From an uncultured Clostridia bacterium (GTDB taxonomy: Bacteria; Bacillota; Clostridia; Christensenellales; CAG-917): a stretch of DNA of 64,000 nucleotides. The notes beneath the pieces were generated by a model. That model made no database searches and was not told the DNA's origin. It saw only the letters and a program-made list of their open reading frames with translations. A program made the translations under genes and the position numbers. The DNA is taken from assembly GCA_944332995.1 (NCBI GenBank), contig CALVKR010000002.1:191752-255751 (forward strand). The letters run 5' to 3'. This document shows, piece after piece, positions 13,209 through 35,172 of this stretch (position 1 is the stretch's first letter; every line of letters starts with the position of its first letter).

Positions 13209-13313
13209 ATTATCTCCTGTTCAAAAATATACTCTATAATTTATTTTGCCGTCTTTAATAAGTCTGCGCGCGGATAGACGGAGCGCATATAAGACAACGG
13301 CGTTTTATCAAAT

Positions 13314-15752
13314 CTATTTATACTGCGACTTGTGCGCCACGATAAATTTGACTTTACCTTTTACGATAGATTTACCTTTTGTCGATTTTGTATCTATCTT
13401 AACCTTTTCGGTGTTGACGACGTGCACGACGTTATCCTCGGTCACCACGCCGAAATCATACGGCATCTTAACGAGCGTTATTCCTGCGATTCTTGCCGTG
13501 CCGAGGTCGGCAATAAGCGAGCCTTTAAGATATCTGTTGCCAGGCTCAATGGTAGAGGAAATAATTCTCTTTGCATTGCCTGCCGTGGTGCAAACGACAA
13601 TTTCTCCTTCGTCGTCGCACTGACCCATAAACGCCACTTCGTCGCCGTCGCCTAGTTTTACGCCTCTTACGCCGCCCGCTTTTCTGCCCTGAACGGGAAC
13701 GTCGTCAAGCCTGAATGCAAGCGACAGACCTTTTTTGGTTACCGCAAGCACGTGCTTGTCGCTTTCGACCATTTCTACGTTTATCACCTCGTCGCCGTCG
13801 GAAAGCACGACCGCCTGATTGTAGTCTTTGGCAAGTTTAAGATATTCGCTAAGATCCGAACGCTTTATCATACCCTTTTTGGTGTAGAACAAAAGCTCGC
13901 CCACAAAGAGTTTGTCGATAAACATGACTTTGACCACTTTTTCTCCGTCTGCGGTATATTCCGAAACACGCTTTAGAGGCAGAGCGCTGTCCTTCCACTT
14001 CTTTTCGGGCATCTCGTCGATATTGATTTTACAATAGTTTCCGAGATTGGTAAAGGCAATAACCTCGCCCGTATTATTGACCACGCAGACGTCTTTGACG
14101 AGTTCTTTGTCCGAACAGGTATTGATATCTCTCGCTCCGTTTCCGTAACTGCGGAAAGACAAAAATTTTATCTCGCCGTAAGGATTGACGGCAACGACGC
14201 CCTCTTTGTATCCGGGACCTGCATTGAGGTCGGCAATGGGAATATTGACCTTTTGTCCCTTGCCCATAAGGACGCTCGTTCTCGGACATTTCTGTTTTTT
14301 TGCAATTTCTCTGAGCTCTTGCTTTACCACCTCGAACTGGCGCTGTTTACTGTTGAGTATTTCGGTGAGATATTCGATTCTTTCCTCGAGCTCTTTCAAT
14401 TCCTGCTCGAGTTTATCCACTTCGAGATGAGTGAGGTTTTTGAGCTTCATTTCTACGATTGCCGTAGCCTGCTCGTCGGAAAGGCTGAACCTCTCTTTAA
14501 GTGCGATTTTTGCCGCCGTGGTAGAAGCGGATTGTTTTATTATCTTTATGACTTCGTCGATATTGGCAATGGCGATAAGCAAGCCTTTGACGATTTCCGC
14601 TCTCGCCTTTGCGATTTTAAGCTCGTATACGGTGCGGCGTTTTATTATATCTCTTTGATAGAAGACGTAATATTTTAAATAATCCACAAGCCCGAGCGTT
14701 TCCGGCTTGCCGTTTGCTATTGCCACCATGTTTATCGAAAAGGTCGTTTCGAGGTTGGATTTTTTAAACAAAAAGTTGACCACATCGTCCACGTTGGTAT
14801 CTCTTTTGCATTTGATGACCGCTCTTATGCCGTCCTTGTCCGATTCGTCTACGATATCGCTGATACCCGACAAAACGTCTTTGTTTGCTTCTCTTAAATC
14901 GGCGATTTTCGTGAGCAATTCCGACTTGGAAATTTTATAAGGGATTTCGGTTATGACGATGTTTTTCTTTTCGTTGGATTCTTCCTCGATATGCACTTTT
15001 GCCCTGATTTTAATCTTGCCCCTGCCCGTTGAATAAATTTCCTCGAGCGAATCCACAGGGATTATATAACCGCCCGTCGGGAAGTCGGGACCTTTTACAA
15101 TCTGAAGCAAATCCTTGAGTTTTACGGACGGGTGGTCGATAACTTTTATAGCCGCCTCGATTATCTCGGAAAGATTGTGCGGAGGGATATTTGTCGCCAG
15201 ACCGACGGCAATACCGTTAGCTCCGTTGACAAAAAGATTGGGAAATCTGCCCGGCAGGATATTCGGCTCTTTTAACGTGTCGTCAAAGTTGTTAGACCAC
15301 GTTACCGTGTTTTTGTCGATATCCCTTAAAAGTTCCATGGCAAGCGGACTCATTCTCGCTTCGGTATAACGCATTGCCGCCGCTCCGTCGCCGTCGATAG
15401 AACCGAAGTTTCCGTGACCGTCGATGAGCTTCATTCTCATAGAGAAGTCCTGCGCCATATTGACGATTGCGCCGTATATAGAGCTGTCGCCGTGGGGGTG
15501 ATATTTACCCATACAGTCACCGACGATTCTCGCCGATTTCTTGAACGGTTTCTCGGGACCGAGCCCCATTTCATACATAGAATATAAAATTCTTCTCTGA
15601 ACAGGCTTTAATCCGTCCTCTACTCTCGGAAGCGCTCTGTCGAGTATGACGTATTCCGAATACGGCAGCATGGAATCGTGCATGACGTCTTCAAAAACTA
15701 CGTCGTATATTTTTGATGAATCTACAAAATTTTCCTCTTTAGCTTTTGCCAT
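13314..15752 (-). CDS. parC: Type IIA DNA topoisomerase subunit A (ParC-like / GyrA family)
   Basis: 812 aa. [17 protein letters not shown] motif, catalytic region AAMRYTE, and a beta-pinwheel C-terminal domain. I see no QRRGGKG GyrA-box. Follows the B subunit directly. Confidence 0.7.
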
Positions 15753-20203: not shown

Positions 20204-21463
20204 ATGGGAAATAACAAAGCAATAAAATGGATACTTGTTATACTTTTGGTAGCAATTTGCATAAGCTGTTTTATAATTGTCTGCACTGTCAATTTAAACT
20301 CTGCAAGCGGAACGAATGCGGAGGAAACGGTAACGGAGGAAAAACCGCCTATAACCGAGGAGCCTCTGCCCGATAAGACGGAGCCTGTCTATTCCGTATT
20401 TCCCCGAGATATAGCAACATACGACTCGGTGGGAGTCGGACATATCGGCGGAACCTTTTCCGATACGCTCATCGAAGTGTTCTCTCTCGGTCAATACTAT
20501 TTTTCTATAATTTCCACAGGCTCAACCGACTACGATTTTACCGAAAGCGGATTTGCGCTTGCAAAATCTACCGACACGTCCTTGCTGGATACGGCGACTT
20601 TCGGCAAAGGCGAATATGTCTGTTCCACCTTTACCGAAGGGAATATTGCCGTTGCCCTTAAATCGGACGGCGTGATAACACTTTTCTTTTTCGACACTTC
20701 TCTTTGCCTGTTATCCTCCTATTCTTTACAGCTCGACGACGCCGTTTTTTATTCGAGCTCGTCAATGCTGTTCGGAACGGCAAACGGCGAACTTTTCGTA
20801 TACGAAACCCTGCCTTCAAAAAGCACTTTGCTTTTTAAAGGCAGGGTAAACGAAAACGTGAAACTAAAACAGATATTTAAAACCAACAATTCCTTTTTGG
20901 TGATAATGTCGGGCGAAAACCTCACAGAGGTTTATTCATACGACACCTCGCTCACTTTGGTCAAAACCATAAACGACGACTACCTCGACTGCTGCATATC
21001 CACCGAGCGTTTTGCGATTTTTTGCACAAGCGGCACCCTATACGCTTTCGACCTCGAGTTTGAGCTCGTTTCAACGCAAAAACTCAAAGAGTGCGTATCG
21101 GCAAAGTTTATCCCTGTTTCGGGCGGCGTTATGCTCGTAACCACAAAAGGATACTATAACCTTTGCTCACACTTCGACAGCCTCAAATTTATGGCGTTTT
21201 CGCTCGAATATCAAAGCGTTGATTTTGCCGTCAAGACGGACGGAGGATATATTCTCGCACAAAGGGACAACCTTGTGGATATTATCCGTTTTACGAGCTT
21301 CGGAAGCTATAACACGCTATATACATTTACCGCCAAAAACACGTTTAAAAGAGTGTTTATAAAACAGAGCGCCTTTACGGTATTTCTGACAAACGCCACT
21401 ATAGACAATATCTTTAAAGACAACTTCGGCGAATCGGACGTATTTTGGCTGTGCCTTAAATAA
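20204..21463 (+). CDS. Hypothetical membrane-anchored protein; extracytoplasmic domain of unknown function
   Basis: 419 aa with an N-terminal TM (WILVILLVAICISCFIIVCTV). The remainder is beta-rich and has no motif I recognise. Confidence 0.5.
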   Translation: MGNNKAIKWILVILLVAICISCFIIVCTVNLNSASGTNAEETVTEEKPPITEEPLPDKTEPVYSVFPRDIATYDSVGVGHIGGTFSDTLIEVFSLGQYYFSIISTGSTDYDFTESGFALAKSTDTSLLDTATFGKGEYVCSTFTEGNIAVALKSDGVITLFFFDTSLCLLSSYSLQLDDAVFYSSSSMLFGTANGELFVYETLPSKSTLLFKGRVNENVKLKQIFKTNNSFLVIMSGENLTEVYSYDTSLTLVKTINDDYLDCCISTERFAIFCTSGTLYAFDLEFELVSTQKLKECVSAKFIPVSGGVMLVTTKGYYNLCSHFDSLKFMAFSLEYQSVDFAVKTDGGYILAQRDNLVDIIRFTSFGSYNTLYTFTAKNTFKRVFIKQSAFTVFLTNATIDNIFKDNFGESDVFWLCLK

Positions 21464-21603: not shown

Positions 21604-22008
21604 ATGGACCAACCGCAGTTTTCTCCGCCGCAAACGGAGACCAAACCCCAAACGCAAAAAGCACCCGCATCGCCTGTCGCGATTGTTTCGTTTGTATTAT
21701 CGCTTGTGGGCACGGTGTTTTTCATAATAGTCATAGCGCTTATTATATCGAGAACGCAAGGTAAAAATCTTTTCAGCTCTATAAACACTTTTGAAAAATA
21801 TATCGCCGTCATGTTCTCGCTTTTTTTGGTGTCGTTTTTCTGTTTTTTGGCGTCGCTCATTACAGGAGCCGTCTCGCTTAAGACGGAATCCAAACTCGGA
21901 TTTGCCGGTCTTATCATATCGGCGATAGAAGTTATTCCGTCAATTATATTTTCCATGGCGTGCGGACTTACGCAATCGATAACAAGTTTAGGTACGGTAA
22001 TGTTATGA
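21604..22008 (+). CDS. Small multi-pass membrane protein (DUF4190-like), hypothetical
   Basis: 134 aa. P/Q/T-rich N-terminus followed by 3-4 TM helices. Its stop overlaps the lgt ATG (ATGA). Confidence 0.55.
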   Translation: MDQPQFSPPQTETKPQTQKAPASPVAIVSFVLSLVGTVFFIIVIALIISRTQGKNLFSSINTFEKYIAVMFSLFLVSFFCFLASLITGAVSLKTESKLGFAGLIISAIEVIPSIIFSMACGLTQSITSLGTVML

Positions 22009-22862
22009 AACCATTTTTATTCGGAGTTATTCCCGCATACGGATTTTTTATTTTTATAGGAGCGGCTTTAGGCGTCTTGCTCGCTACGTTTCGCCGTCGC
22101 CATGACGGAATATCAAACAAAGAGGTTTTCTTTACAGGCGTCATATCTTTAACGATAGGTCTTATAGGCGCAAAGCTGTTTTACATTTTCGGGACGCTTC
22201 CCAAAGTTATTTCGGGAGATATGCCGTGGATTGCCCTTTTTGAATCCGGATTTATGTTTTACGGCGGTCTTATATTCGGAATTTTGGGCGCACTGCTTTG
22301 CGCCTACATTTTCAATATTCCGATAAAGCGTCTTTTTGACGCTCTCTCATTCGGCGTTCCCATAGGACAGGCTTTCGGCAGAATAGGCTGTTTCTGCGCC
22401 GGCTGTTGTTTCGGAATTCCCACCGATTCGGCAATAGGCGTCGTGTTTACCCACCCTCTCGCCTCCACCACTCCCGTGGGCGTTCCGCTCGTTCCCACTC
22501 AGCTGATTGAATCGGCAAGCTGTTTTCTGATTGCCGTCATAATGCTCGTCGTATTTTCCAAAAAGAGAAGGGACGGAGCGGCTTTCTGGACGTATATAGT
22601 GCTTTACGCAGTCACCCGTTTTATAATAGAATTTTTCAGAGGCGACGCCGAAAGAGGTATGATTGGGGCGCTTTCCTCGTCGCAATTCGTCGCAGTGCTG
22701 TTTTTGTCGGCGTTTGTCGTCTATCTTATCGTCCGCAAAATCGTAAAGGCAAAGATAGGCAAAAACGACTCCTTCCTCGAGGCCAAAGGAGTTATTTATA
22801 AACTTCCGAAATGCGCAAAATGGAACATAATGAAATTTGACCAATATGCAAATTTAAAATAA
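22005..22862 (+). CDS. lgt: Prolipoprotein diacylglyceryl transferase
   Basis: MKPFLFGVIPAYGFFIFIGAALG N-terminus, GRIGCFCAGCCFG motif, multi-TM. The ATG at 22005 is preferred over the upstream extension in the ORF track (21960). Confidence 0.85.
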   Translation: MKPFLFGVIPAYGFFIFIGAALGVLLATFRRRHDGISNKEVFFTGVISLTIGLIGAKLFYIFGTLPKVISGDMPWIALFESGFMFYGGLIFGILGALLCAYIFNIPIKRLFDALSFGVPIGQAFGRIGCFCAGCCFGIPTDSAIGVVFTHPLASTTPVGVPLVPTQLIESASCFLIAVIMLVVFSKKRRDGAAFWTYIVLYAVTRFIIEFFRGDAERGMIGALSSSQFVAVLFLSAFVVYLIVRKIVKAKIGKNDSFLEAKGVIYKLPKCAKWNIMKFDQYANLK

Positions 22863-23060: not shown

Positions 23061-23873
23061 TTACTCTGCAATTTCCTCTTTTGCTCTTTCCAAAAATTCC
23101 TTGACTGCTTCAAGCGGAATGGCGTAGTTTATACCCAACTTGCCGGAGTCTGCCACAACGACGCCCACGACCTTTCCGTCGTCGCCAATCAAAGGACCGC
23201 CGCTGTTGCCGGGCAGAGTGTTGGCTGTGATTACTATAAACTCCTCGTCGTTCACCTTTCTGAGTTCGTCGGATACAAGACCGTCGATAATGCAAAGCCC
23301 TTTACCTGCGCTGTTGCCGATGGCGTAGATATGCTCGCCTGTCCTCACCGCTTTATCAGAAAATTCGGCAGGTTTTAAATTTTCGGCTTCGATTTTAAGC
23401 AATGCCAAATCCTTTTTCGGGTCGGCGGTAACAAATTCAAGCGTATACATTTGCGATTGCTTATAAAACTTACAATATATGAAATTGGATATATTTTCTA
23501 TCTTTTTATCCGCCGATACCTTGCCCACGCAATGCAAATTTGTAAGAACGTATCCGTCCATACATATAAAACCGCTACCCGTCGAGATTTCGTCGCCGTA
23601 AGTAGCGCCCACGGTAACGACGCTGTCTCTGTTTTTGTCGAACACGTTTAAGTTTTCTTCTTTCTCAATTTCCACAACCGCCTTAGCCTTTTTAACCGCA
23701 GTTTTGGGTGCGTTTTTAAGATTAAAAACTCTCAGCTTAGATTCGCTGTTAAATTCCCCGAAACAGCTGCGGCATTGATAGCCGTAAAAAGTGTTGCCGT
23801 CCTTTTCGTATTCGACAAGCTCTACGATTTCCTCGCTTCCGCAAATTTCGCATTTATCGCATTTAAAAACCAT
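23061..23873 (-). CDS. Zn-ribbon + trypsin-like (S1/Trypsin_2) serine protease; last gene of the candidate system
   Basis: 270 aa. N-terminal CxxC...CxxC (KCDKCEICGS...YQCRSCFG). Catalytic triad candidates are LTNLHCV (His), KKDLALLKI (Asp) and GNSGGPL (Ser). No PDZ domain and no signal peptide. Confidence 0.8.
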   Translation of the reverse strand: MVFKCDKCEICGSEEIVELVEYEKDGNTFYGYQCRSCFGEFNSESKLRVFNLKNAPKTAVKKAKAVVEIEKEENLNVFDKNRDSVVTVGATYGDEISTGSGFICMDGYVLTNLHCVGKVSADKKIENISNFIYCKFYKQSQMYTLEFVTADPKKDLALLKIEAENLKPAEFSDKAVRTGEHIYAIGNSAGKGLCIIDGLVSDELRKVNDEEFIVITANTLPGNSGGPLIGDDGKVVGVVVADSGKLGINYAIPLEAVKEFLERAKEEIAE

Positions 23874-23881
23874 AACTCCTC

Positions 23882-25033
23882 CTACTCGGCAATTTCTTCG
23901 CCGTTTCTGTAAGCCTCGAACTTGGCGAGCTCTTCCTCGGTTATTACGTTTCTCGTAGTCTTAATAGCTTTTTCAAGGTCTTTAAGCGTTATATTTTCCG
24001 CTTTTCCGCTCTTGACCGCTCTCTTATATGCTTCGAGCTTTACTTTTTCGCATATGGCGGTTATATCGCCTCCACCGAATCCCTTAAGCGACACGGCAAA
24101 CGCTTTTAAATCGACATCGTCGTCTTTAGGAAGATTTTTGAGCGCCTTGTTTACCATAAACTCGCGGGCGCCCTCGTCGGGCAGACCGACGTATATTTGT
24201 GTGTCGAAACGGCCGCCTCTGACCATTGCGCTGTCGATGACCCACGGACGGTTGGTAGCGGATATCAAAAGCAGCATTTTGTTTGTCTTAGACTTTTTAA
24301 AGCCGTCTACCTTGGTCAGAAAAGTAGCGACAAATCTTGCCATTTCTGCGTCGACGCCGCCCGAGCTATCCCCTCTTTTTGAAGCGACGGAATCGAATTC
24401 GTCGAAAAAGATTATTGCTCTTTCGTTTTTCTGCGCAGTTTCAAACAGAGCGTCAAGCTGCTTGGAGCTGTCGCCCATATATTTAGAAATGAGGTCCTGA
24501 CAGTTTACTGCAAAAAACTTTGCGTCAACCTCACCTGCTATCGCCCTTGCAATAAATGTTTTACCTGTTCCGGGAGGTCCGTAAAGCATTATCTTTCCGC
24601 CCGGTTTTATATTGTAGAGTTTGGCAAGTTCGGGATTCCCCAGAGGCGCCAACACCTTGAAACGTATCTGATCTTTTACGTCCTCGAGCCCTGCCACGTC
24701 TGCAAAGGTAACTTTGTTTTCATCGGTATCGACAGGCTGAAAGGTAGGCATTTCGTCGTCCTTTTTCTGCGCCTGTTTATTCTGTTCCGCGTCGGCTGTC
24801 CTGATGGGTTTTTTGCCGGAACAATGACTTCTTACAAAGTCGAGAATTTTTGAAGCAAGTTTATGATACTCGATTTTTACGTCGTTCGTAGTCGCTGTCG
24901 TCGATATATCGTCGGCAAGTTCAGCCGCTCTCAAAAATGCGTCTCTTGCTCCTAAAATATCACCGGCACCGTAAAGTTCTTTGCCCGTTGCGTAAAAACT
25001 TTTATATGCTTCCACTTTAGCCGAATTGTTCAT
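23882..25033 (-). CDS. AAA+ ATPase of the classical (Vps4/katanin/FtsH-like) clade with an MIT-like three-helix N-terminus
   Basis: 383 aa. Walker A GPPGTGKT, Walker B IIFFDEFD, second region of homology SATNRPWVIDSAMVRGGRFD. The first 80 or so aa are helical and MIT/TPR-like (GDILGARDAFLRAAELADDI). Confidence 0.8.
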   Translation of the reverse strand: MNNSAKVEAYKSFYATGKELYGAGDILGARDAFLRAAELADDISTTATTNDVKIEYHKLASKILDFVRSHCSGKKPIRTADAEQNKQAQKKDDEMPTFQPVDTDENKVTFADVAGLEDVKDQIRFKVLAPLGNPELAKLYNIKPGGKIMLYGPPGTGKTFIARAIAGEVDAKFFAVNCQDLISKYMGDSSKQLDALFETAQKNERAIIFFDEFDSVASKRGDSSGGVDAEMARFVATFLTKVDGFKKSKTNKMLLLISATNRPWVIDSAMVRGGRFDTQIYVGLPDEGAREFMVNKALKNLPKDDDVDLKAFAVSLKGFGGGDITAICEKVKLEAYKRAVKSGKAENITLKDLEKAIKTTRNVITEEELAKFEAYRNGEEIAE

Positions 25034-25149: not shown

Positions 25150-27951
25150 CTATCTTTTGAGCTTTAAACCTCTCGAGTTAAAATAATCGTCGATATCGAA
25201 ATGGTCGTCAAATTCAAACTCGTATCGCTCGTCGTCATCGTCGTCACGGTCGAGCCTTTTTTCGTTGAACTCAAAAATGTTTTCATACCTCGTTATTGCG
25301 GAAGGAAATATAACGAGCGCCAAAACGACAGCCATGAAAAATCCCACTGCGCTCGTGCCGCTTTCGCTTGCACGTATAATCTGCATTCTCGCATTTTTTA
25401 CACCGCCGAATTTTTCGTTTTTATATTGCTCGTTGACAACGTTAAGTTTATAATCTCTATACTTTTTAATCCTGAATCTTAACACGACCAAGGATATAAT
25501 AGACAAAACGGCAAATACGAGCATGAGCACGAAAGTTACGAATGCTCCGCCCAAAAATTTGTTTTGGGTTTCCGCCACTATCGTTACCACAAAACAGGCA
25601 ACAAACGCCATAAACAGCAACGTCGCCGTCAGTACGTAAGGAGCAATCGAAACCTTTTGCTTTTGCGATTCGTTTTTCGCTCTAGCCTCGTCCCACTTTT
25701 TTTGCACTTTATACAACGTCGAGCCCTTTTCAACGCCCGTGCCGTTAAGCGGAGGATTGTTATCTTTTCTGTTTTGCCCTTGATTTTGAGCCTGATAATT
25801 TTTAGCGTTTTTTACGATACGCATGCAATTTTGCGTTTGTCTGTCGTCTGCCACCGCAAGAAAGTTTACAAACTCGGGCATTGCGGATATATCCGCTCCG
25901 CTTCTCTCCAGCTCGCTGTCCGTGGAGGCTTTTGCCTTTGCCATGATAAGTTGCCAGAACACGTTCGGGTTTTCTTTATCGTATTCAAGCCTGAGTTTGA
26001 GATAATACACGGCAGAATCGAAAAATCCTGCTTTCATACAGGCGTCCGTCATTGCCGTTAGCTGTCCGTCGATTTCGCTTACGTCGGAGGGATAATATCT
26101 TATGACGTGATTGAAAGTTTCAACACAATTAGCCGTGACAGGCGCACTGTAAAGTGCGTCGAGGACGGCGGTTATCTCCCTTTGCTGCCCGACCTTGTCG
26201 AGAGATATCAAAAGCGCCTCGAACTCGTCGAATTTAAAACGGTTCGGCAATGCGATATCCCGGTCATATCTGACCTCGGACGGAGATATCGGGCTAAGCG
26301 ACGTTGTCCTGATAATTCCTCTTAATGCGTCGGTATAGCCTGCGTCGATTTTTAAAACTCTCGAAAAATACATCTTCGCAACGGAATACTGCTTTTTATA
26401 AAGCGCCGCCACGGCAAACTCGTATAAGTATCTAATGTGCAAATCGACGTCCGAGGAATCGACTGCGCATATAACTTTTTCAAATAGAGAAGGCGAAACC
26501 TTCATCGACACCGCTTTCATTATTTTTTCTACGTTTGCTTTTGAGTTTTCGTAAGAATACGGCAATATGGCATCAAGAAGCGAAAGTGCGTCCTTTTCGT
26601 TTACCTCGACAAGGTTTGCCGCCAAACCGTAAAAGATGTCGAGAGCGGAAACGGCAAAGTCCTTGCTTGCCTTCGATATAATTTCGTCCGCCATATCCGA
26701 TTCGGGAAACGCTTCCGACTTTATAAAATCGGAAACGCTCATACAGCGACGGTTGACAAACAGTTTATACATAAGTGCTTCCGCACTGTCAGGATTTGCC
26801 TTTAAAATCGAATCGAGCAAAGCTGACGCCTCGTCAAACAATCCGTTTTGCGCCATCGTCTTGACGACGGCAAGCTGTTTTTTCTCGGAAAGCGATAAAT
26901 CTATTCCTTTAAGATTGAGGCTTTTTTGCTCAAGCTGTTTTGTCGCAACCTCTTTCGCCCTTTTTAACACTCTGCCGGATTTAAGGCTGATTTTTTCAAT
27001 GCCGTTGCCTTCGGTGGAAGTCGTTTCCTCAAACACCTTTTCTATGTGCCTTAAAAGGTCGCCGAGAAAGGTTTTTTTGGAGCCGTCGAGGCATTGCCTG
27101 TTTTTAAGAGATGACGGCAAAAGGCTCGGGTCGAAATTTTCATATACCACAACAAGGCTTGCCGAATGTTTTTCACCCTCTGCCAACAGTTTGGCATAAC
27201 GGCGCCATTCGTTTTTCACCCACGCCGACGTGACGTAATCGGGATTTTGAGCGTAAACTATCATAACTCTCGCCGTTTTGATAGCGTTAAAAATATAAGG
27301 CTCGTATTGCTCGGCAATCTTATCTCTTAAACTTTCTCTCGAAAAGAATACTCTGTATCCTGCCTGAGTGAGGTATGTATAAAGATTCTGAGCCTCATAG
27401 CTGTCTTTGGTGCGCTCTATTCCCTTTTCCGAGTCGCTGTCTTTGTAACATATGAAAATATCGTAAGGTTTTTCCTTGCTCGCTTTAAAAAGCCATTCCG
27501 TGCGGATTTTTTCTATCTTTTCGCCCAAGCGGACGTAATTATCTTTAACCTCGCCGACGCTGTGCTCGATTGCGGCAAGATAATCTTTGTCCTGCAAAAA
27601 TGACGATTCGCTTATCCTGTGACAGGTGGGAACTTTTTTCGAGTCGACGTCGTCGACAAACAAAACTCCCGCCCTTGCCAAAGCCCTGCCCCAATAAGCC
27701 TCGTGGCAGTCGCTGTCGGCGGATATAACTCGGCTGAAAGATTCCTCGGCTTCTTCAAATTCGCCTTTTCTGAGGTCGTCGAAAGCGTTATACAGTATGA
27801 CCTCGTTTTGCGATTTTGCCGTCCTGCTTTCATATTTTGCGCCGCATGCAAGACACTCCAAAACGACCCCGTCGTCACGAAGGGGACCGCCGCATATTTT
27901 ACAAATAAGTTGTGTAAGTGTGTCTTTTTCCATATTCAATCGTTTAGGCAA
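25150..27951 (-). CDS. Zn-ribbon - TIR domain - helical (TPR-like) repeats - 3 TM - acidic tail protein
   Basis: 933 aa. CKICGG...CLACGAKY at the N-terminus. TIR-like block at aa ~161-300 (YDIFICYKDSD...GYRVFFSRESL...ARVMIVYAQNPDYVTSAWVKNEW). Three C-terminal TM helices, then the tail DRDDDDDERYEFEFDD. An alternative ATG start lies at 27933. Confidence 0.75.
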   Translation of the reverse strand: MPKRLNMEKDTLTQLICKICGGPLRDDGVVLECLACGAKYESRTAKSQNEVILYNAFDDLRKGEFEEAEESFSRVISADSDCHEAYWGRALARAGVLFVDDVDSKKVPTCHRISESSFLQDKDYLAAIEHSVGEVKDNYVRLGEKIEKIRTEWLFKASKEKPYDIFICYKDSDSEKGIERTKDSYEAQNLYTYLTQAGYRVFFSRESLRDKIAEQYEPYIFNAIKTARVMIVYAQNPDYVTSAWVKNEWRRYAKLLAEGEKHSASLVVVYENFDPSLLPSSLKNRQCLDGSKKTFLGDLLRHIEKVFEETTSTEGNGIEKISLKSGRVLKRAKEVATKQLEQKSLNLKGIDLSLSEKKQLAVVKTMAQNGLFDEASALLDSILKANPDSAEALMYKLFVNRRCMSVSDFIKSEAFPESDMADEIISKASKDFAVSALDIFYGLAANLVEVNEKDALSLLDAILPYSYENSKANVEKIMKAVSMKVSPSLFEKVICAVDSSDVDLHIRYLYEFAVAALYKKQYSVAKMYFSRVLKIDAGYTDALRGIIRTTSLSPISPSEVRYDRDIALPNRFKFDEFEALLISLDKVGQQREITAVLDALYSAPVTANCVETFNHVIRYYPSDVSEIDGQLTAMTDACMKAGFFDSAVYYLKLRLEYDKENPNVFWQLIMAKAKASTDSELERSGADISAMPEFVNFLAVADDRQTQNCMRIVKNAKNYQAQNQGQNRKDNNPPLNGTGVEKGSTLYKVQKKWDEARAKNESQKQKVSIAPYVLTATLLFMAFVACFVVTIVAETQNKFLGGAFVTFVLMLVFAVLSIISLVVLRFRIKKYRDYKLNVVNEQYKNEKFGGVKNARMQIIRASESGTSAVGFFMAVVLALVIFPSAITRYENIFEFNEKRLDRDDDDDERYEFEFDDHFDIDDYFNSRGLKLKR

Positions 27952-28120: not shown

Positions 28121-28717
28121 TCAGTCTAAAATTTTGTTTTTCTCTTTTGCTATCTCGTCCGCAAGGCTCATACCCGTGCTCTTGGGTGCGTTTGGCAAAG
28201 CCGCTCCGCTGAGTTTCGCTCTTGCGGCGTCTATCATGGGACGGACTGCCGATATCTCGTCGTTGCTTCTTGCCCTGTTGGCAGGATTGGACGACTTCAT
28301 GGCGCCCGCCATAGCCTTTTGAGAAATTTTTATGTTTCTCATATACTTGCTGATTTTGATGTTCGCCTTTTGAATTTTCTTGATATCCGGCATTTTGGCT
28401 TTATTGCCCGCCATTTTGTCGAGAGCGTTGATAGCCATTGCCATATTCTGAGCGATAGCGTTTGAAACGTTTATTATATCAAAATTCGCCTTTGTCTGCG
28501 TGAGCGAGCTGATAACGTCGTTAAGTTCGATAAGAGCGTTTACCGCCACGTCGTAGCTGCCCATATCGCCGTTTATTTCCGCCTGAGCGGCAATGTTGGC
28601 ATATTCCTGTCTTTTGGCGGTGAGCTCGTTTATCTGGTCGTTAAAAATCTGCATTTGCTCGTCGCGTTCCATTTGCGCTATAATTTCTTTTTCTTGTTTG
28701 GTTTTGTAGAAAGCCAT
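28121..28717 (-). CDS. ESCRT-III superfamily-like (Snf7/PspA-like) all-helical protein, candidate
   Basis: 198 aa, predicted long helical hairpin. The segment NFDIINVSNAIAQNMAMAINALDKMAGNKAKMPDIKKIQKANIKISKYM resembles the Snf7 alpha2-alpha4 core. The C-terminal LADEIAKEKNKIL is MIM-like. GGAGG RBS. Confidence 0.45.
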   Translation of the reverse strand: MAFYKTKQEKEIIAQMERDEQMQIFNDQINELTAKRQEYANIAAQAEINGDMGSYDVAVNALIELNDVISSLTQTKANFDIINVSNAIAQNMAMAINALDKMAGNKAKMPDIKKIQKANIKISKYMRNIKISQKAMAGAMKSSNPANRARSNDEISAVRPMIDAARAKLSGAALPNAPKSTGMSLADEIAKEKNKILD

Positions 28718-28733: not shown

Positions 28734-29741
28734 CTATTTTACGGTTGGCGTATCTTGATTTCCGACTTCTTCTTCATCCAAATCGGACATGCTCGATTGA
28801 GCTGCTTTTTGAGCGTTTCGTTTTGCGATAAGTTCCTGTTGATAGGCAACGGCTTCGCTCGTGGCGGCGTCGTCGACTTCGCCGAATCCGCTTATCTTTT
28901 GTTCGTTGGCTTCGATTTTAGGCACCATGGCTTTTAAATCTTCTTCCATTTTCTTGAGCGTGGTAACCGCCCTTTCCGGCTCGGCAATGACCTTTTTGAG
29001 GTCGTCCACTTTAAGATATGCCTTTGCCTTATTAAGTTCGGATACGGAAAACTCCGAAGCTATGATTTTTTCTCCCACCAAACTTGCTATCATATCGAGC
29101 AAATCGCTGCAAAAGCTGTAGTTGCGGTAAGTATTGTTGAGTGCGTTGAGCTTAACCTTGACCGCCTTGACTTTAGATACGAGATTGTTGAGTTTGCGGT
29201 CGTTTTTTTCGTCTATTATGGCGTCGTTCAATTCGTCGATATCTCTTTCGAGGTTCTGCATTTCCGCCTCGAGTCTCTTTTCGTTTGAAAGATATTCCGA
29301 TTGCACGTCCTTTAATTCCGAAAGTTTTTCTTCAAGTTTTCTTCTTACCGACGAGGTTTCTCTCTTTTGGAGTTCCTCGCCTGCAATGGACGAATCCACG
29401 TCGCCGTAGAGCACGCTTGACCATTTATCGATAGTATAGTCGAGGTCGTCCACCGACTGAATGAGCCTGCCGCTGAGATATGACTTCATTTGGTCTCTTA
29501 CGTCGTCAATTTGAATCAAAGCGGTATTATAAAAACATTCGATGTTTTCGTCGCCCGTACCCACGATTTCTTCAAAATTTTTGATAACGTCGTAAAGTTT
29601 TTTTCTTGCCTGCTGAACGGATTCACCGTTTAAATCTTTGTTGTATCTTCCCTTATCGATATCAAATATGACGCCCTGCAATTTTTTTGCGACCTCGTCG
29701 CGCATGGCGTTGTTTGCTTTTACTGACGGTTTATACTTCAT
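28734..29741 (-). CDS. Long coiled-coil protein (possible PspA/ESCRT-III-like or TelA-like), hypothetical
   Basis: 335 aa with heptad-rich E/K/L/N composition and an acidic C-terminus. Its start overlaps the SPFH gene stop by 11 nt, with a GGAGGGGG RBS inside the upstream gene. Confidence 0.4.
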   Translation of the reverse strand: MKYKPSVKANNAMRDEVAKKLQGVIFDIDKGRYNKDLNGESVQQARKKLYDVIKNFEEIVGTGDENIECFYNTALIQIDDVRDQMKSYLSGRLIQSVDDLDYTIDKWSSVLYGDVDSSIAGEELQKRETSSVRRKLEEKLSELKDVQSEYLSNEKRLEAEMQNLERDIDELNDAIIDEKNDRKLNNLVSKVKAVKVKLNALNNTYRNYSFCSDLLDMIASLVGEKIIASEFSVSELNKAKAYLKVDDLKKVIAEPERAVTTLKKMEEDLKAMVPKIEANEQKISGFGEVDDAATSEAVAYQQELIAKRNAQKAAQSSMSDLDEEEVGNQDTPTVK

Positions 29742-30408
29742 CGCTATCCCCCTCCGAATTGACGGCGTTTTTTATCATGAGCATATCTTCTTCCGGCACG
29801 AAAATTTTTGCCGTTAAAGTGTTTACCTCTATTCCCATGTCTTTTATCAATTCTTTTTCGTTTAACTGTTTTTTGATTGCCACAGATACTTCTTCCGTCT
29901 TGGCGGTAACCTCAAAAACGGAAACCGTCGTATCGGCAAAAAGAGTCGCCACTGCGTCGGAAGCCACCATCTGCATGCATGACAGCACTTTTTTCTTTAT
30001 ATCGTCAAGAGTGATAACTGTTCCGAATTTGAAGTTGTCGATAAATCTGCGGTCGTTTACCACCTCGAAGACACATTCTCCGTTGGCGCCCACTCTGTAT
30101 GCCTGTTTAAGTTTCGGGTTTTTGACCTGAATGTCGCCCACTCCCCAAAGAATTTTCGGGAATACCGTGCTGACAAACGCCACCCTAAGCTGTTTTTTAA
30201 GATAACTTCTGTCCTTTTTCAAAAGGTCGAAAACTCTTTCGTCGGCGCACTGCTTGACCACCGCTTCGATTTTTTCATCGATATACAGATAAGCCTTAAA
30301 CTGCCTCGGAACGGTTATATTTACGTCCTTGGTCAATTCGAGCGGTTCGCAAAACTGAACGATTAAGTTTTCGTCGGCATAAGGTTTCAATAATACTTTT
30401 TTCGACAT
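29731..30408 (-). CDS. SPFH/Band-7-like protein of the YdjI (COG4260) type
   Basis: 225 aa, colinear by eye with B. subtilis YdjI-type proteins (ITVPRQFKAYLYIDEKI.., ..WGVGDIQVKNP.., YRVGANGECVFEVVNDRRFIDNF, ITLDDIKKKV, GIEVNTLTAKIFVPEED). Confidence 0.55.
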   Translation of the reverse strand: MSKKVLLKPYADENLIVQFCEPLELTKDVNITVPRQFKAYLYIDEKIEAVVKQCADERVFDLLKKDRSYLKKQLRVAFVSTVFPKILWGVGDIQVKNPKLKQAYRVGANGECVFEVVNDRRFIDNFKFGTVITLDDIKKKVLSCMQMVASDAVATLFADTTVSVFEVTAKTEEVSVAIKKQLNEKELIKDMGIEVNTLTAKIFVPEEDMLMIKNAVNSEGDSDEV

Positions 30409-30414
30409 AACTTA

Positions 30415-30777
30415 CTACCTCTCCTTATTTTCGGTTGACTTGATCACCTGGCAAATCCTTTCAATCGTTTCGTCGTCGAGATTTTCTTTTGCAACGGCGT
30501 ATATGACCCTCCTGCGGTTCTCCTCGAGATTAGCAAAATCAAGACGCATATTTTCAAGCGAGGAAGCAAGCGCCTTTTTCATCTTTTCCTGTTCTTCAGG
30601 CGTAAGGTCGTAGTTTGCCAAAATTGCGTCCTTCAAATCGTCGGGAACGTTGCGTTTGCCGTTTTCGATTGCCGAAAGATATGACGCCGAAATCCCCAGT
30701 TTTTCCGCCATTTGCTTTGCGCTGTCGCCGCAGTTGATACGAATTATCCTGAGTGTTTTTCCAAATTCCGTTATCAT
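30415..30777 (-). CDS. XRE-family helix-turn-helix transcriptional regulator; first gene of the cluster
   Basis: 120 aa with an HTH_3 signature (FGKTLRIIRINCGDSAKQMAEKLGISASYLSAIENGKRNVP). AAAGGAGAA RBS. Confidence 0.85.
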   Translation of the reverse strand: MITEFGKTLRIIRINCGDSAKQMAEKLGISASYLSAIENGKRNVPDDLKDAILANYDLTPEEQEKMKKALASSLENMRLDFANLEENRRRVIYAVAKENLDDETIERICQVIKSTENKER

Positions 30778-31039: not shown

Positions 31040-31897
31040 TCAAAGCACGACTTTAATTTTGCTCGGCGAATTTTGAACGCTCACGATAAACTTTTCGCCG
31101 GGGTAGTATTTTTCGCCGTCAAGGCAAAACGGATAATTTTTATCCAACTCGACTTCGAGGTTTTTTACCGCTTTAAAAGTCATGTTTTTCGAACGGTATT
31201 CCTTTTTAAAACCTATAAAAAAGGCTCGAAATAGCGGAAAGAAAATTTTAAACTTTTTGAAATGCCCTTTAGGAGTTCTTATCGTAAGAAGGTGAAAAAG
31301 TCCGTCGTTAAACTTATACAACCGGTTGAAGCGGAATCCGAAACATCTTTGAGAATCAAGGCACATAATCAAAGAATAAACTCCCTCGTCCGTTTTTCCG
31401 TCTGCCACGAGTTTTGCTTTCATATCGTAAACTTTGTATTCTTTAAAAACTTTAAAAATATATGCAAGCCACTTAAAGCGTTTCTTGCTCTTGTTCGAGG
31501 TGGAATATCCGATAGGAGTAAACGAGCCGCTCGCAAAAACGTAGACGAACTGATGGGAATCCACCCTGCCTATCTCGGATATGGTAAGGTCACTGCCCTG
31601 TTTTTTCATGTGTCCGGAAAACTCGTTTAAAGTGCCGTAAGGGAAATACAGCACGTCGATGCCCGTTTTCGACGCAATGTTCAAAGCGTTGCTCAGCGTA
31701 CCGTCGCCTCCGCAAACGGCAACTGCGTCGCACTCGTCAAGCTCAAACGTGTCCTTTTCGTCGGCTATCATAATAACTTCCGTCACCGTATATTCTTCGT
31801 CGGGAAACCTGTGTTTGAGCTTATCCAAAATGATTTTGTCATAGGCTTTTTCTCCGTTTCCGCTCAGTTTATTGATGACGATCTTCAATCTTTTCAT
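31040..31897 (-). CDS. Diacylglycerol/lipid kinase family protein (YegS/BmrU-like)
   Basis: 285 aa with the GGDGT motif (VAVCGGDGTLSNALN) and a DAGK catalytic-domain layout. Confidence 0.75.
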   Translation of the reverse strand: MKRLKIVINKLSGNGEKAYDKIILDKLKHRFPDEEYTVTEVIMIADEKDTFELDECDAVAVCGGDGTLSNALNIASKTGIDVLYFPYGTLNEFSGHMKKQGSDLTISEIGRVDSHQFVYVFASGSFTPIGYSTSNKSKKRFKWLAYIFKVFKEYKVYDMKAKLVADGKTDEGVYSLIMCLDSQRCFGFRFNRLYKFNDGLFHLLTIRTPKGHFKKFKIFFPLFRAFFIGFKKEYRSKNMTFKAVKNLEVELDKNYPFCLDGEKYYPGEKFIVSVQNSPSKIKVVL

Positions 31898-32370: not shown

Positions 32371-32898
32371 ACCACATAGGTGGCATATAATAGGAAAACT
32401 ATTTAACCTGCCTACGCACACATCTTATTTTTTAAAACTTAAAATTAAATTAAAAACAAATTTAATTTTAAAAATTTTTTTTTAATTCGCATTTATTTCG
32501 CATTTTTTTCAAACCGACCCTCAAACCGCCACTAAAGTTTTAATTTTAGTGCCGCTCTTTAGTCTGTTGCGTTTCCCTTCTTTTCAATTTAATACGTTTT
32601 TAAGTTTTTCGGTTAAAATAAGGTTAAATAATAGCTATTATAAAAGAATTATCAAAATATTATCAAAAAAACGGTTTGATTAAACGCAGGCATTTTCATA
32701 TATTCGTTGTCTCCCTATTTAAGTTTTAAGCTGTTAATTTAAATCGAACGAAGTAAAAACGGTCCGTCGCAAGTTATCCGACGGCTAAAAATATAAAATT
32801 TATAGCTTTAATCGCTTTTAAGTGTTGCAACATTTATATTTTCGGTTAAAATTTAATTGGAGCGACGCATTGTCGCACTTAAAGGCAAAGGAGTAAAT

Positions 32899-33576
32899 AT
32901 GAGAGTTTTACTTATCGAAGACTCAACGAGTTTATCGCAAGCGTTGGTTGCGGTGCTCAAAAAGGAAAAATACGAGGTAGAAAACGTCTACGACGGCGAA
33001 AGCGGGCTCGAATTCGGGCTGAGCAACGTTTTTGACATTATCCTGCTTGACGTTATGCTTCCCGAGATGAGCGGTTTTGACGTTCTGAAAAAACTCAGAC
33101 AAAACAAGATAACAACCCCTATAATCATGCTTACCGCCCTGTCCGACGAGGCGAACAAAGTGCACGGGCTCGACTGCGGGGCGGACGACTATATCGCCAA
33201 ACCCTTTTCTATTCCCGAGCTTCTCGCAAGGATAAGAGCGCTGACGCGCCGCAAAAGCGACAGCTATCAGGGATTTATATCACACAACGGAGTCAACCTC
33301 GACGTCAACACCTACAAGGTGGAATACGACGGCAAAAGCGTAAAACTTTCGGTGAAGGAATTTGAGATTTTAAAGTATCTTTTTGAAAAAGGAAACGCCA
33401 TTGCCGATAAAGAAAATCTTATCGCAAAAGTGTGGGGATTCGACAGCGAATTTGAATCGAATACCCTTGAAGTTTTCATTTCCTTTCTAAGAAAGAAACT
33501 TGCGTTTTTAAACGCCCCCTTTACCATAAACGCAATAAGAGGCGTGGGCTATCAGCTCGAGGACAAAAAAGATTAA
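32899..33576 (+). CDS. OmpR/PhoB-family response regulator
   Basis: MRVLLIEDS receiver domain (D...LLDVMLP..., K at IAKPF) and a winged-helix C-terminus (IRGVGYQL). AGGAG RBS 7 nt before the ATG at 32899. Confidence 0.9.
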   Translation: MRVLLIEDSTSLSQALVAVLKKEKYEVENVYDGESGLEFGLSNVFDIILLDVMLPEMSGFDVLKKLRQNKITTPIIMLTALSDEANKVHGLDCGADDYIAKPFSIPELLARIRALTRRKSDSYQGFISHNGVNLDVNTYKVEYDGKSVKLSVKEFEILKYLFEKGNAIADKENLIAKVWGFDSEFESNTLEVFISFLRKKLAFLNAPFTINAIRGVGYQLEDKKD

Positions 33577-33714
33577 ACGCCTTACAGCTTGAATTTATTC
33601 GGACTTTAAATTTGCAACGGTAAAAATCAAAACGGCAAACAGCCAAACCGCAAAAATAAAGCGTCAAATTTAAAACGCTTTAAATGCAAAAGCAATCGTC
33701 AATCGGAACGGAAT

Positions 33715-35172
33715 ATGAAAATAAGCGTCAACACGTCATCTAAAAAGGAATTGTTTAACGACCTTAAAATAAAATTTATGTTGCTTGCGTCTGTTATCGG
33801 CACGGCGATTCTTTTGATTATTTTCATAGCGATTTTTTCGGCTCAATACGGCGATATGCAACTGAGCATAAAAGACAGCCTTTTTACAACCATAGAAGAT
33901 TTTAAAAGCAACAGCGGTGCGGGCTCGGAATTCAACGACTTCGATACCAGAAACCACTGTATTTTGCTTGTGGAAAGAAACGGAGTGATAGTAATAAAAC
34001 AACACTTCGACGGATATACGCAAACGGAACAATCGCAGATAATCAACGTCGTGACGAACACGGATAAAACTAAAGTTACGATAGGTAAAAGACACTTTCA
34101 GATTTTAAAAGCAAGCAGTTCAAACTTCGTATTTGACGAAACGGTATACGCAATTTACGACTATACTATGGAATACAACTCGATAATGGTTATGATTATC
34201 GCCTTTTCCTGTTCGATAATTCTGTCGGCGTGGCTGTTTTCTCTTATCGGCTGGTTGTTTGCAAAACACGCCGTCAAACCGGTCGAATACGCATTTCACA
34301 ACCAAAAGGAGCTCGTCACAAACGTATCTCACGAGCTCAAAACGCCGCTTACCGTTTTGGCGACAAATATAAATCTCGCAAAAGGCTCGCTGACCGCAAA
34401 AAACGCAGAAGCGAAAAGCTGGCTCGACAGTTCCGCCGCTCAGATAGAAAAAATGAACAAACTTATTCTTGAAATGCTCGAGCTGTCAAAATTTACAAGC
34501 GTGTTTTACAACCCCAATTTGGAAAAAATCAACCTGAGCGACTTTTTGGAAAGCACCCTGCTTTCCTTTGAAGCCACCTGCTATTATAAAAAAATCACGC
34601 TTGAAACGAAAATCGAAAAAGACGTGTGGTGCTATGTCGATAAAAATTCGCTCGAAAGGCTTCTTTCCATTCTCTGTGACAACGCCATTAAATATACACC
34701 CGAAGACGGCAAGATAAGAGCGGGGCTCGTCAAACAAAAAAAGAAAGTTGTCATCACCGTATCCAACACGGGCAAAGGCATATCGGAAGAAAATCTCAAA
34801 CACATATTTGAAAGATTTTACAAAGTGTCCACCGACGTGGAACAGTCAAAGAGTTTCGGGCTAGGACTTTCCATAGCGAGGTCTATAGCGCAATCTATGG
34901 GCGGCGAGATAAGCTGCGAAAGCGAAACGGATAAATATACCGCCTTTATCGTTTCGTTGCCTTTGGAAAGAAAGAAAACTGAGGCCTACGCAAATCAAAA
35001 ACGGCAGTTAAAGCAAAACGTCGACGAACAGTCTGACGATATGAAATCGCAGACGGACGCAGGACGCAAAAAATCACTTTTTAAAAGTAAATCCTCAAAA
35101 AAACAAGAGAGCAAAAACGGCTCGACTGAAACGGATACGACGCAGAAAAATGACGACGAGCGGCAGGATTAA
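33715..35172 (+). CDS. Sensor histidine kinase (HisKA + HATPase_c), two TM segments
   Basis: H-box SHELKTPLT, N-box DNAIKYT, and G-boxes NTGKGI / GLGLSIARS. K/S/D-rich C-terminal tail. Confidence 0.9.
   Translation: MKISVNTSSKKELFNDLKIKFMLLASVIGTAILLIIFIAIFSAQYGDMQLSIKDSLFTTIEDFKSNSGAGSEFNDFDTRNHCILLVERNGVIVIKQHFDGYTQTEQSQIINVVTNTDKTKVTIGKRHFQILKASSSNFVFDETVYAIYDYTMEYNSIMVMIIAFSCSIILSAWLFSLIGWLFAKHAVKPVEYAFHNQKELVTNVSHELKTPLTVLATNINLAKGSLTAKNAEAKSWLDSSAAQIEKMNKLILEMLELSKFTSVFYNPNLEKINLSDFLESTLLSFEATCYYKKITLETKIEKDVWCYVDKNSLERLLSILCDNAIKYTPEDGKIRAGLVKQKKKVVITVSNTGKGISEENLKHIFERFYKVSTDVEQSKSFGLGLSIARSIAQSMGGEISCESETDKYTAFIVSLPLERKKTEAYANQKRQLKQNVDEQSDDMKSQTDAGRKKSLFKSKSSKKQESKNGSTETDTTQKNDDERQD

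Follow-up and report, generated by a model that had tools for sequence, protein, structure and literature searches.

Introduction

[quoted passage not shown] A survey of the phage shock protein (PSP) systems of bacteria noted Vps4-like genes that occur without a Snf7 partner (PMC11237479), as well as some PspA/Snf7 clades that adjoin AAA+ ATPases, these being double-AAA proteins or members of ABC-transporter operons (PMC11237479, section 18). Proteins of the SPFH family have been placed beside both the bacterial and the archaeal systems: in Bacillus subtilis the SPFH protein YdjI brings PspA to the membrane (PMC8581546), and in archaea a linkage of SPFH genes to ESCRT loci has been described (PMC10936438). 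Vps4 itself has been inferred to derive from Cdc48 (Makarova et al. 2024, PMC10936438). Here we analyze a stretch of 64,000 nucleotides (the window) from an uncultured Clostridia bacterium of the Christensenellales lineage CAG-917 (assembly GCA_944332995.1, contig CALVKR010000002.1, positions 191,752 to 255,751 of the forward strand), and within it a seven-gene operon on the minus strand that encodes a 198-residue helical protein, designated E3, together with a AAA+ ATPase, an SPFH protein and a 335-residue protein designated X335.

The operon is probably a bacterial membrane-remodeling module of the ESCRT-III/Vps4 type. With a probability of roughly 60%, we read it as a bacterial analog of the ESCRT-III/Vps4 core in which charge polarity is inverted and the TIR and protease modules are optional. 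In this reading E3 would be a diverged polymer subunit of the ESCRT-III superfamily that the SPFH protein and X335 recruit and an MIT-domain AAA+ ATPase recycles. A pairing of E3 with an MIT-like ATPase is of the type that the literature describes as absent from bacteria, and a search of the literature for the E3 family or its cassette found no description of either.

Compared with the archaeal Cdv system (CdvB and CdvC of Sulfolobus and Saccharolobus), the locus belongs to a bacterial host, has a single E3 gene and no CdvA, encodes an E3 protein that carries no winged-helix domain, and has as its other members the SPFH protein, X335, a TIR protein and a protease. The Meth_adaptin and Halo_adaptin loci (PMC10936438) resemble it in combining a Vps4-like ATPase with an upstream ESCRT-III- or PspA-like gene and an SPFH protein with coiled-coil and zinc-ribbon parts; the E3 cassette, however, has neither adaptin nor GOLD partners, and its ATPase carries an MIT-like domain, whereas the Halo_adaptin ATPase has no MIT domain. 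With the bacterial PSP systems (PspA, LiaH and Vipp1, and the B. subtilis pspA-ydjGHI operon) it would share a polymer of the ESCRT-III superfamily and an SPFH partner of the Band_7_1 family, and zinc-ribbon proteins are found in the operon, but E3 has no match to PspA_IM30 and a shorter hairpin. Unlike the ATPases of the PSP survey, which are double-AAA proteins or belong to ABC-transporter operons, the one encoded here is a single MIT-AAA protein with SPFH, X335 and TIR partners.

The E3 gene and its family

E3 is encoded by an ATG-to-stop open reading frame (ORF) at positions 28121-28717 of the window, preceded by a strong Shine-Dalgarno sequence (GGAGG) about 9 nt upstream of the ATG; the coding strand is the minus strand, and the plus strand over the same interval is riddled with stop codons. 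A preliminary description, made from the sequence, had placed a 198-residue protein in this interval and quoted from it the peptides LTQTKANFDIINVSN...AMAGAM and, at the C-terminus, MSLADEIAKEKNKILD, both of which occur verbatim in the E3 translation. Searching a database of 5.8 billion proteins returned 622 homologs at E≤1e-3, every one of them unnamed or labeled as hypothetical and the best 120 sharing 71-99% identity with E3, and when 1.84 billion cluster representatives were searched exhaustively, the family resolved into 41 clusters (50% identity), the most distant of them at about 25% identity. Because of these 622 homologs and 41 clusters, and because the gene neighborhood is kept in 49 loci, E3 is a genuine gene and not a chance ORF; since the exhaustive search yields only 41 clusters, the family is real but narrow. 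No model in Pfam, NCBIfam, PADLOC or PHROGs recognizes E3, and a second profile search of the protein database linked it to no annotated family, with only close relatives among the matches listed. GAIN, TolB_N and phrog_34202 were considered as possible families and set aside as noise, with E-values of about 0.01-0.07.

Close relatives of E3 are present in 36 species representatives of GTDB, mostly metagenome-assembled genomes (MAGs) labeled as Clostridia, Christensenellales or Bacilli, in line with the Firmicute host proposed in the preliminary description; a few of the MAGs are labeled otherwise, for instance as Elusimicrobiaceae or Bacteroidaceae. The nearest public record is a human-gut scaffold (FR901010.1, locus L012 in the comparison below) labeled as Acidaminococcus sp. 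CAG:917 and about 99% identical over E3. This label looks unreliable, given that most relatives of the cassette are found in MAGs of Clostridia, Christensenellales and Bacilli. No copy of the cassette was found by tblastn in plasmid and phage sequences.

Predicted structure and remote matches of E3

The structure of E3 was modeled with AlphaFold2 from an alignment of 34 family members (mean predicted local distance difference test score, pLDDT, of 69; predicted template modeling score, pTM, of 0.46). In the model the protein is entirely helical, with helices at residues 7-49, 52-102, 112-142, 152-170 and 185-197, and the pLDDT is 79-87 over residues 11-80, dropping to 68-73 over residues 81-100. 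The first two helices form a predicted hairpin of α1 and α2/3 (28412-28699, minus strand), the tip of which carries the motif A46/G50 (AEAEINGD...A.NAL). They are followed on the same strand by the predicted α4 (28292-28384), by α5 (28208-28264; RPMIDAARAK), which lies 3' of an SNPAN(R/K)xR hinge seen in the alignment, and, after a variable linker of low confidence, by a C-terminal amphipathic helix (28127-28165) that is likewise indicated by both model and alignment. The scarcity of proline and glycine from which a long helical hairpin had been anticipated is borne out: the protein has just 5 Pro and 6 Gly and, besides P160 in the predicted α5, all of them lie outside or at the ends of predicted helices. 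The model therefore presents α1, α2/3, α4, α5 and a tail helix in the order and with the lengths seen in ESCRT-III, in a predicted hairpin-to-tail layout. The hairpins of PspA, as seen in PspA and Vipp1 structures, are longer than those of Snf7 and CdvB size, which counts against taking E3 for a PspA.

Structure searches with the E3 model place the ESCRT-III superfamily first in two libraries. Against the PDB, the top Foldseek match is CHMP2A-CHMP3 (E=0.05-0.08, probability 0.99-1.0), with S. islandicus CdvB, Asgard ESCRT-IIIB, Vipp1, CHMP1B, Shrub, CdvB2, PspA and Snf7 among the further leading matches; members of the superfamily make up 23 of the top 50, ranks 1-4 included. Against BFVD, a library of viral structures, rank 1 is a giant-virus protein annotated as 'Snf7 family protein' (E=9e-3, probability 1.0) and rank 5 a phage PspA/IM30 protein. 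The preliminary description had named generic coiled-coil or phasin-like proteins as the best matches that would speak against a Snf7/ESCRT-III-like core; instead, ESCRT-III ranks first.

A profile comparison also points to this core. A broad hidden Markov model (HMM) of the family, built from 18 diverse members, was compared with the sequences of the PDB, and its sole significant match is S. islandicus CdvB (9s9j, E=3.3e-4), residues 27-106 of which align with residues 15-94 of the E3 family with the hairpins in register. Reversed and shuffled controls were made because coiled-coil profiles, that of X335 for example, can draw spurious matches of such size. The best PDB match of the reversed E3 family profile has E=0.99, and the CdvB fragment scores 23.3 bits on the E3 HMM, against 0.4 bits when reversed and no more than 8.8 bits in any of 300 shuffles. 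CdvB was reached only by the broad 18-sequence profile, PDB searches with the single E3 sequence and with narrow profiles having returned no ESCRT-III match.

The partner AAA+ ATPase

The ATPase of the operon (383 residues, 23882-25033, minus strand; PF00004, E=1e-38) consists of an MIT-like N-terminal domain, a linker predicted to be disordered and one AAA cassette of the classical type, whose motifs, as read from the translation, are intact: Walker A GPPGTGKT, Walker B IIFFDEFD, a KYMG pore loop and an Arg-finger region, RGGRFD. In the AlphaFold2 model residues 1-71 (24821-25033, minus strand) form a three-helix bundle (helices 4-23, 26-46 and 50-71) with pLDDT of 84-95, and residues 74-95 are disordered. 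Eight of the ten top Foldseek matches of this domain in the PDB are MIT domains, with template modeling (TM) scores of up to 0.84 and root-mean-square deviations (rmsd) of 1.1-2.0 Å for the closest. They include the MIT domains of VPS4B and VPS4A, free or with CHMP6 or IST1, as well as NRBF2 and MITD1 (TM 0.83, rmsd 1.1 Å), and the archaeal Vps4 MIT-CdvB complex (2w2u) superposes with TM 0.83 and rmsd 1.6 Å. CdvB is also the only PDB protein found by the E3 HMM, and both observations are points of likeness to the archaeal Cdv system. At the level of predicted fold, then, the protein has the architecture of Vps4 and CdvC, that is, MIT domain, linker and single AAA cassette. The assignment to MIT rests on fold because the Pfam MIT model is silent and hhalign is marginally above its controls, the comparison of the N-domain with MIT being weak (P=0.004; controls 0.04 and 0.2).

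The AAA core, by contrast, is not that of a Vps4 ortholog. On NCBIfam models it scores 209 bits with PAN, 201 with CDC48 and 193 with FtsH, all above the 170 bits obtained with CdvC (cutoff 650); its C-terminal subdomain is nearest to p97/Cdc48 D2, then to Afg2 and VAT, with katanin lower; and Vps4_C (PF09336) matches residues 346-376 at E=0.0014 with 19.0 bits, below the cutoff of 21.3, in a region that also aligns with the C-terminus of p97 D2. For these reasons the core is taken, from its sequence, as Cdc48-like. The preliminary description had placed a Vps4-like ATPase near E3, and the part of this claim that stands is an ATPase on the same strand, in the same operon and with an MIT-like architecture, while its core proves nearest to Cdc48/p97 D2. 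A Cdc48-like core fits the inferred origin of Vps4 from Cdc48 (PMC10936438).

Among the related loci, two size classes of ATPase are found, whose N-domains are related to each other (hhalign P=2.7e-4, control 0.06); both classes occur in tandem in one locus (L023, 8595-10969). In a distantly related locus (L007, 4688-5839) the ATPase belongs to a different family, of the SpoVK/AAA_lid_6 type, yet has a homologous N-domain (P=7e-5, reversed 0.53), and a further one (L008, 6381-7220) shows the same pattern (N-domain P=3e-6). These comparisons suggest that, in the ATPases linked to E3, domains were shuffled while the N-terminal recognition domain remained the same. Since the N-domain stays with E3 across ATPase families, it may be argued to be the part that recognizes the E3 system.

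The operon and its conservation across related loci

To place E3 in its genomic context, 49 related loci found with a narrow E3 alignment were compared over the limited flanks that were fetched. Wherever the contig reaches upstream, the order HTH, SPFH, X335, E3 is kept, and in most of the loci a AAA+ gene lies 3' of E3, either directly or further down the operon. Relatives of E3 at just 27-38% identity are still directly followed by an ATPase gene. Several loci that seemingly have none may hold one past the fetched flank, as in L048 and L049, where a TIR/LRR (leucine-rich repeat) protein of 2370 residues comes first and the ATPase is found about 10 kb downstream. Neither the operons nor the rest of the window contain additional E3 paralogs, each locus having a single E3 gene.

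In the window the operon extends from a promoter-like site at 30847-30819 to a terminator-like hairpin at 22887-22864, all on the minus strand. The former (TTGACT-17-TATAAT with an extended TG) is the best in the region and agrees with the consensus at 11 of 12 positions, and the latter, after the last gene, has a 10-bp stem and a T-run; both are putative, as matches to a consensus. The first gene of the cassette (30415-30777) encodes a 120-residue helix-turn-helix (HTH) regulator of the XRE type (Pfam HTH_31, E=7.5e-11; HTH_3, E=3.3e-10) and holds the same place in most related loci. It is followed by the gene for a soluble, YdjI-like SPFH protein of the Band_7_1 family (225 residues, 29731-30408; PF13421, E=2.5e-7, 31 bits with a cutoff of 24), which in nearly all loci of sufficient extent lies two genes upstream of E3; in relatives PF13421 scores 29-36 bits, and some of these proteins have about 500 residues.

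Between the SPFH gene and E3 lies X335 (335 residues, 28734-29741), which matches no family and in a profile search of the PDB matches only generic coiled coils (about 1e-3). Its stop codon adjoins or overlaps the start of E3, and its place is kept in the loci that extend upstream. Conserved motifs in X335 are KKYxPSVKxNN, GTGxEN, NERKIN and DALAYKEELMRKKREKE; an acidic tail comes after them. X335 was also considered as a second ESCRT-III- or PspA-like subunit and rejected, since its hhalign comparisons with E3, Snf7 and PspA are not above controls and its PDB matches are generic coiled coils.

Downstream of E3, the window encodes a 933-residue protein (25150-27951) with a zinc ribbon, TPR repeats on both sides of a TIR domain (TIR_2, E=9.7e-11, residues 165-292; TPR_19, TPR_16 and TPR_14), about four transmembrane helices and an acidic tail. 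TIR/TPR proteins of 460-3500 residues fill the same slot in relatives, frequently but variably (examples are L001 12081-20585, L004 10629-13694, L018 4549-6714 and L048 1128-8240), and those of up to about 3500 residues add BspA-type LRR_5 and Flg_new surface repeats. With the zinc ribbon, TPR and TIR parts N-terminal and presumably cytoplasmic, and the transmembrane part following, the layout is in the LRR-bearing relatives reminiscent of Toll-like receptors. The last gene, after that of the ATPase, encodes a 270-residue protein (23061-23873) that joins a zinc ribbon to a trypsin-like serine protease of the HtrA/DegP type (Trypsin_2, E=1.9e-24); roughly half of the related loci have a trypsin-like protease gene. 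Not every locus encodes the TIR protein and the protease (the former is absent from L009, for example), whereas SPFH, X335 and E3 are found in every locus that extends upstream.

The operon is flanked in the window by an unannotated ORF of 419 residues (20204-21463) and Lgt (21960-22862) on one side, and on the other by a lipid-kinase-like gene of the diacylglycerol kinase catalytic family (DAGK_cat, 31040-31897), an OmpR-type response regulator with a histidine kinase (32857-35172) and a DNA-alkylation-repair protein, the flank spanning to 35914. These flanking genes are not kept in relatives. In L048, genes for an S24 LexA-like repressor, an HTH_36 protein, a NikA-like protein and a relaxase follow directly after the cassette (12051-15255), an arrangement that hints at a cassette able to neighbor, or move together with, a mobilizable element.

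Conserved features and charge distribution of E3

The most conserved positions of E3, even at 25% identity, are A46, G50, N144 and P145. A46 and G50, at the predicted hairpin tip, are conserved in at least 90% of the family, and the SNPAN(R/K)xR hinge that contains N144 and P145, between α4 and α5, is invariant. The hinge (residues 141-149, 28271-28297, minus strand) ends in Arg/Lys and could, speculatively, be a site for the trypsin-like protease of the operon, in which case cleavage would strip the C-terminal part from E3. At the N-terminus the motif MAFFK(T/S)K is nearly invariant in the family, with M1, F3 and K5 invariant in close relatives. It resembles the start of CHMP3 (MGLFGK), although it is short and lies in a low-confidence part of the model; the earlier view that E3 lacks an N-terminal amphipathic helix or membrane motif is therefore doubtful.

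For the C-terminal helix the family consensus is [DS]L[SA]xEIxxEK[NK][KR]I[IL], which is kept whichever type of ATPase is present. MIT-interacting motifs (MIMs) of the MIM1 class are C-terminal amphipathic helices with the consensus (D/E)xxLxxRLxxL(K/R), and what agrees with it in the tail of E3 is the extreme C-terminal position that follows a variable linker, along with the first two hydrophobic residues and one basic residue. Of the MIM-like C-terminus that had been proposed, the position after the linker holds and the MIM1 consensus does not; the helix sits where a MIM would, and contact with the MIT-like domain would be expected there.

The net charge of E3 is -7 to -8 in the hairpin and +9 in α4, a distribution shared by all 18 diverse members, so that the inverted charge noticed at the outset turns out to be a family-wide property. 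For comparison, the N-terminal and C-terminal halves carry +8 and -27 in Snf7 and +13 and -21 in CHMP3.

Discussion

Several results weigh against the interpretation of the locus as an ESCRT-III/Vps4-type module. Concerning the sequence of E3, Pfam Snf7 (PF03357) and PspA_IM30 (PF04012), the two profiles against which the preliminary description proposed to check it, match neither E3 nor a single one of the 18 diverse members at a threshold as loose as E≤10, while the same scan picks up the comparators Snf7, CHMP2A, CHMP3, CHMP4B, CHMP1B, PspA and Vipp1 at E=1e-16 to 1e-72, and NCBIfam is equally silent. Profiles of Snf7 and PspA were also built from comparator sequences validated with Pfam (E=1e-16 to 1e-59 for the Snf7 set against PF03357). 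The alignment of the E3 family with the five-sequence Snf7 profile by hhalign is in register (25-171 versus 24-175), but its P of 0.0056 equals in practice the 0.0074 of the reversed control; it sets MPDIKKIQK...KYM of α4 in E3 against the LDIDKVDETMDEI motif of Snf7, again no better than the reversed control. The corresponding comparison with the PspA profile yields nothing, and on the E3 family HMM eukaryotic ESCRT-III, PspA and Vipp1 are not above shuffles. Because these tests against curated Snf7 and PspA profiles are negative or no better than controls, the claim of homology rests on the fold, the CdvB match and the genomic context, and not on a match to a curated family.

Concerning structure, the confidence of the E3 model is moderate (pLDDT 69, pTM 0.46), Foldseek yields no match with E<1e-3 in the PDB or BFVD even though the structural check brought CHMP2A/CHMP3 to the lead with Vipp1 and PspA among the matches, and long helical hairpins match promiscuously in such searches. 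The polarity of E3 is the opposite of that of canonical ESCRT-III, in which the N-terminal half is basic and the C-terminal half acidic, although the two halves are still charge-complementary, and its C-terminal helix departs from MIM1 in having Glu in place of the central Arg and of the third Leu. On the side of the ATPase, Pfam MIT matches none of the N-domains and the core is Cdc48-like; set beside the archaeal Cdv system, both proteins diverge, E3 in failing PF03357 and in its inverted charge and the ATPase in favoring PAN/Cdc48 over CdvC. Finally, a single E3 gene per locus differs from the several paralogs of archaeal and eukaryotic systems, and partners such as TIR proteins and proteases are typical of conflict systems and not of housekeeping membrane repair.

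The last of these points is the starting point of the alternative that survives best, although we consider it unlikely, namely that the cassette is an anti-phage or abortive-infection system. The TPR-TIR protein would then sense attack, the protease or the ATPase would activate E3, for instance by cleavage at SNPAN(R/K)xR that removes an autoinhibitory α5 and tail, and E3, together with SPFH and X335, would damage or shed the membrane, acting as an effector and not as a repair polymer. TIR, a trypsin-like protease, an XRE-type HTH and a AAA+ ATPase that scores on the IetA models of PADLOC are all consistent with this, as are a weak Thoeris ThcB4 match, the patchy spread of close relatives over 36 GTDB species representatives, the flanking genes that vary between genomes, the relaxase/NikA block adjoining the cassette in L048, a TIR partner that is highly variable in size and bears LRR surface repeats, and the invariant, Arg-containing hinge of E3. 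PADLOC, however, matches none of E3, the SPFH protein and the TIR protein, and X335 has just weak matches to LmuB coiled coils; some loci do without the TIR protein and the protease, while SPFH, X335 and E3 occur in every locus that reaches upstream of E3; no plasmid or phage copies were found; and the neighbors in the window are housekeeping envelope genes. A known defense system was sought with PADLOC and rejected, the matches being limited to generic IetA, TRIP13, protease and HTH models.

The described defense system that comes closest is IetAS (Gao_Iet), which likewise has an adjoining AAA+ ATPase and serine protease, and the ATPase of the window reaches E=5e-43 on the PADLOC IetA model. 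Such a score is nevertheless expected of any classical AAA protein, the NCBIfam IteA model gives 128 bits with a cutoff of 510, and the protease here is trypsin/HtrA-like and not a subtilisin. IetA is not known to carry an MIT-like N-domain or to have partners that are ESCRT-III-like or of the SPFH family. The ATPase-protease pair (23061-25033, minus strand) scores on the IetA and RT-protease models of PADLOC, and an automated defense finder might call it IetAS-like.

It is also possible, though quite improbable, that E3 is a helical-hairpin or coiled-coil scaffold unrelated to ESCRT-III, with a likeness that is convergent or an artifact of helical composition, and with the ATPase acting on another substrate such as X335 or feeding the protease in the manner of HtrA or IetAS. 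The absence of Pfam and NCBIfam matches, an hhalign result with Snf7 that equals its reversed control, Foldseek E-values of 0.01-1 and the inverted charge polarity would all be expected of such a protein, and the coiled-coil profile of X335 also draws PDB matches of about 1e-3, which indicates that E-values of this size can be spurious. Yet X335 matches synthetic and generic coiled coils, whereas the single significant match of E3 is to ESCRT-III, the family that tops two independent structure libraries, and the reversed and shuffled controls are clean. In addition, the ATPase independently has a predicted MIT fold, of the kind that recognizes ESCRT-III, and its N-domain stays with E3 when the family of the ATPase changes.

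That the operon is a lineage-specific envelope-stress variant of PSP (PspA-YdjGHI type), with E3 a functional PspA anchored by SPFH and the ATPase a regulator like PspF and not a disassemblase, has very little probability. In its favor, the partner is a Band_7_1 SPFH protein, of the family of YdjI, the membrane tether of PspA (PMC8581546); the fold matches of E3 include structures of Vipp1 and PspA; and the neighbors of the operon in the window include Lgt, a DAG-kinase-like gene and a two-component system. Against it, PspA_IM30 gives no signal by HMMER or hhalign, the hairpin helices of E3, with 43 and 51 residues, are Snf7/CdvB-sized, and the ATPase is an unfoldase of the classical AAA type that has a pore loop and an MIT-like domain but neither a sigma-54 activator domain nor a DNA-binding domain of the PspF kind.

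Returning to the interpretation of E3 as a diverged ESCRT-III-superfamily subunit, the predicted fold, the remote likeness to ESCRT-III, the conserved gene linkage and the MIT-like fold of the ATPase are the observations from which we infer polymerization, membrane binding and contact between MIT-like domain and C-terminal helix. In such a mechanism, the soluble, YdjI-like SPFH protein and the coiled-coil protein X335 would recruit E3 to the cytoplasmic side of the membrane or nucleate it there, and E3 would polymerize via its α1-α2/3 hairpin. Lipid contact may be made through the MAFFK motif and the strongly basic α4, where canonical ESCRT-III uses a basic hairpin. The AAA+ ATPase would dock on E3 by its MIT-like N-domain, most likely at the conserved C-terminal helix, and thread it through the KYMG pore loop, so that the polymer would be disassembled or remodeled. 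The TPR-TIR membrane protein and the trypsin-like protease would be variable add-ons with a sensory or regulatory role, and the HTH protein would control the expression of the cassette.

A broader proposition is more tentative, and we place it slightly below even odds: that gut Clostridia (Christensenellales-like) and related Bacillota possess a genuine ESCRT-type machine, composed of a Snf7/CdvB-like polymer, a dedicated MIT-AAA+ disassemblase and an SPFH/coiled-coil recruiter, and wired to a TIR receptor-like membrane protein. Were this machine genuinely bacterial, it would imply an ancient origin, an archaeal-to-bacterial transfer in the gut, or an independent assembly of the MIT-ATPase/ESCRT-III logic from a Cdc48-like ATPase. 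The cassette would then offer a simple system for the study of ATP-driven ESCRT-III remodeling, in which each locus has a single gene for E3 and one or two for the ATPase, and would make it possible to test whether the recognition of ESCRT-III by MIT domains predates the archaeal Vps4 lineage or arose apart from it. The inverted charge of E3 amounts to a natural experiment on the autoinhibition and membrane binding of ESCRT-III. If the interpretation is true, SPFH scaffolds, and possibly TIR signaling, would be tied to membrane remodeling in abundant uncultured bacteria of the gut.

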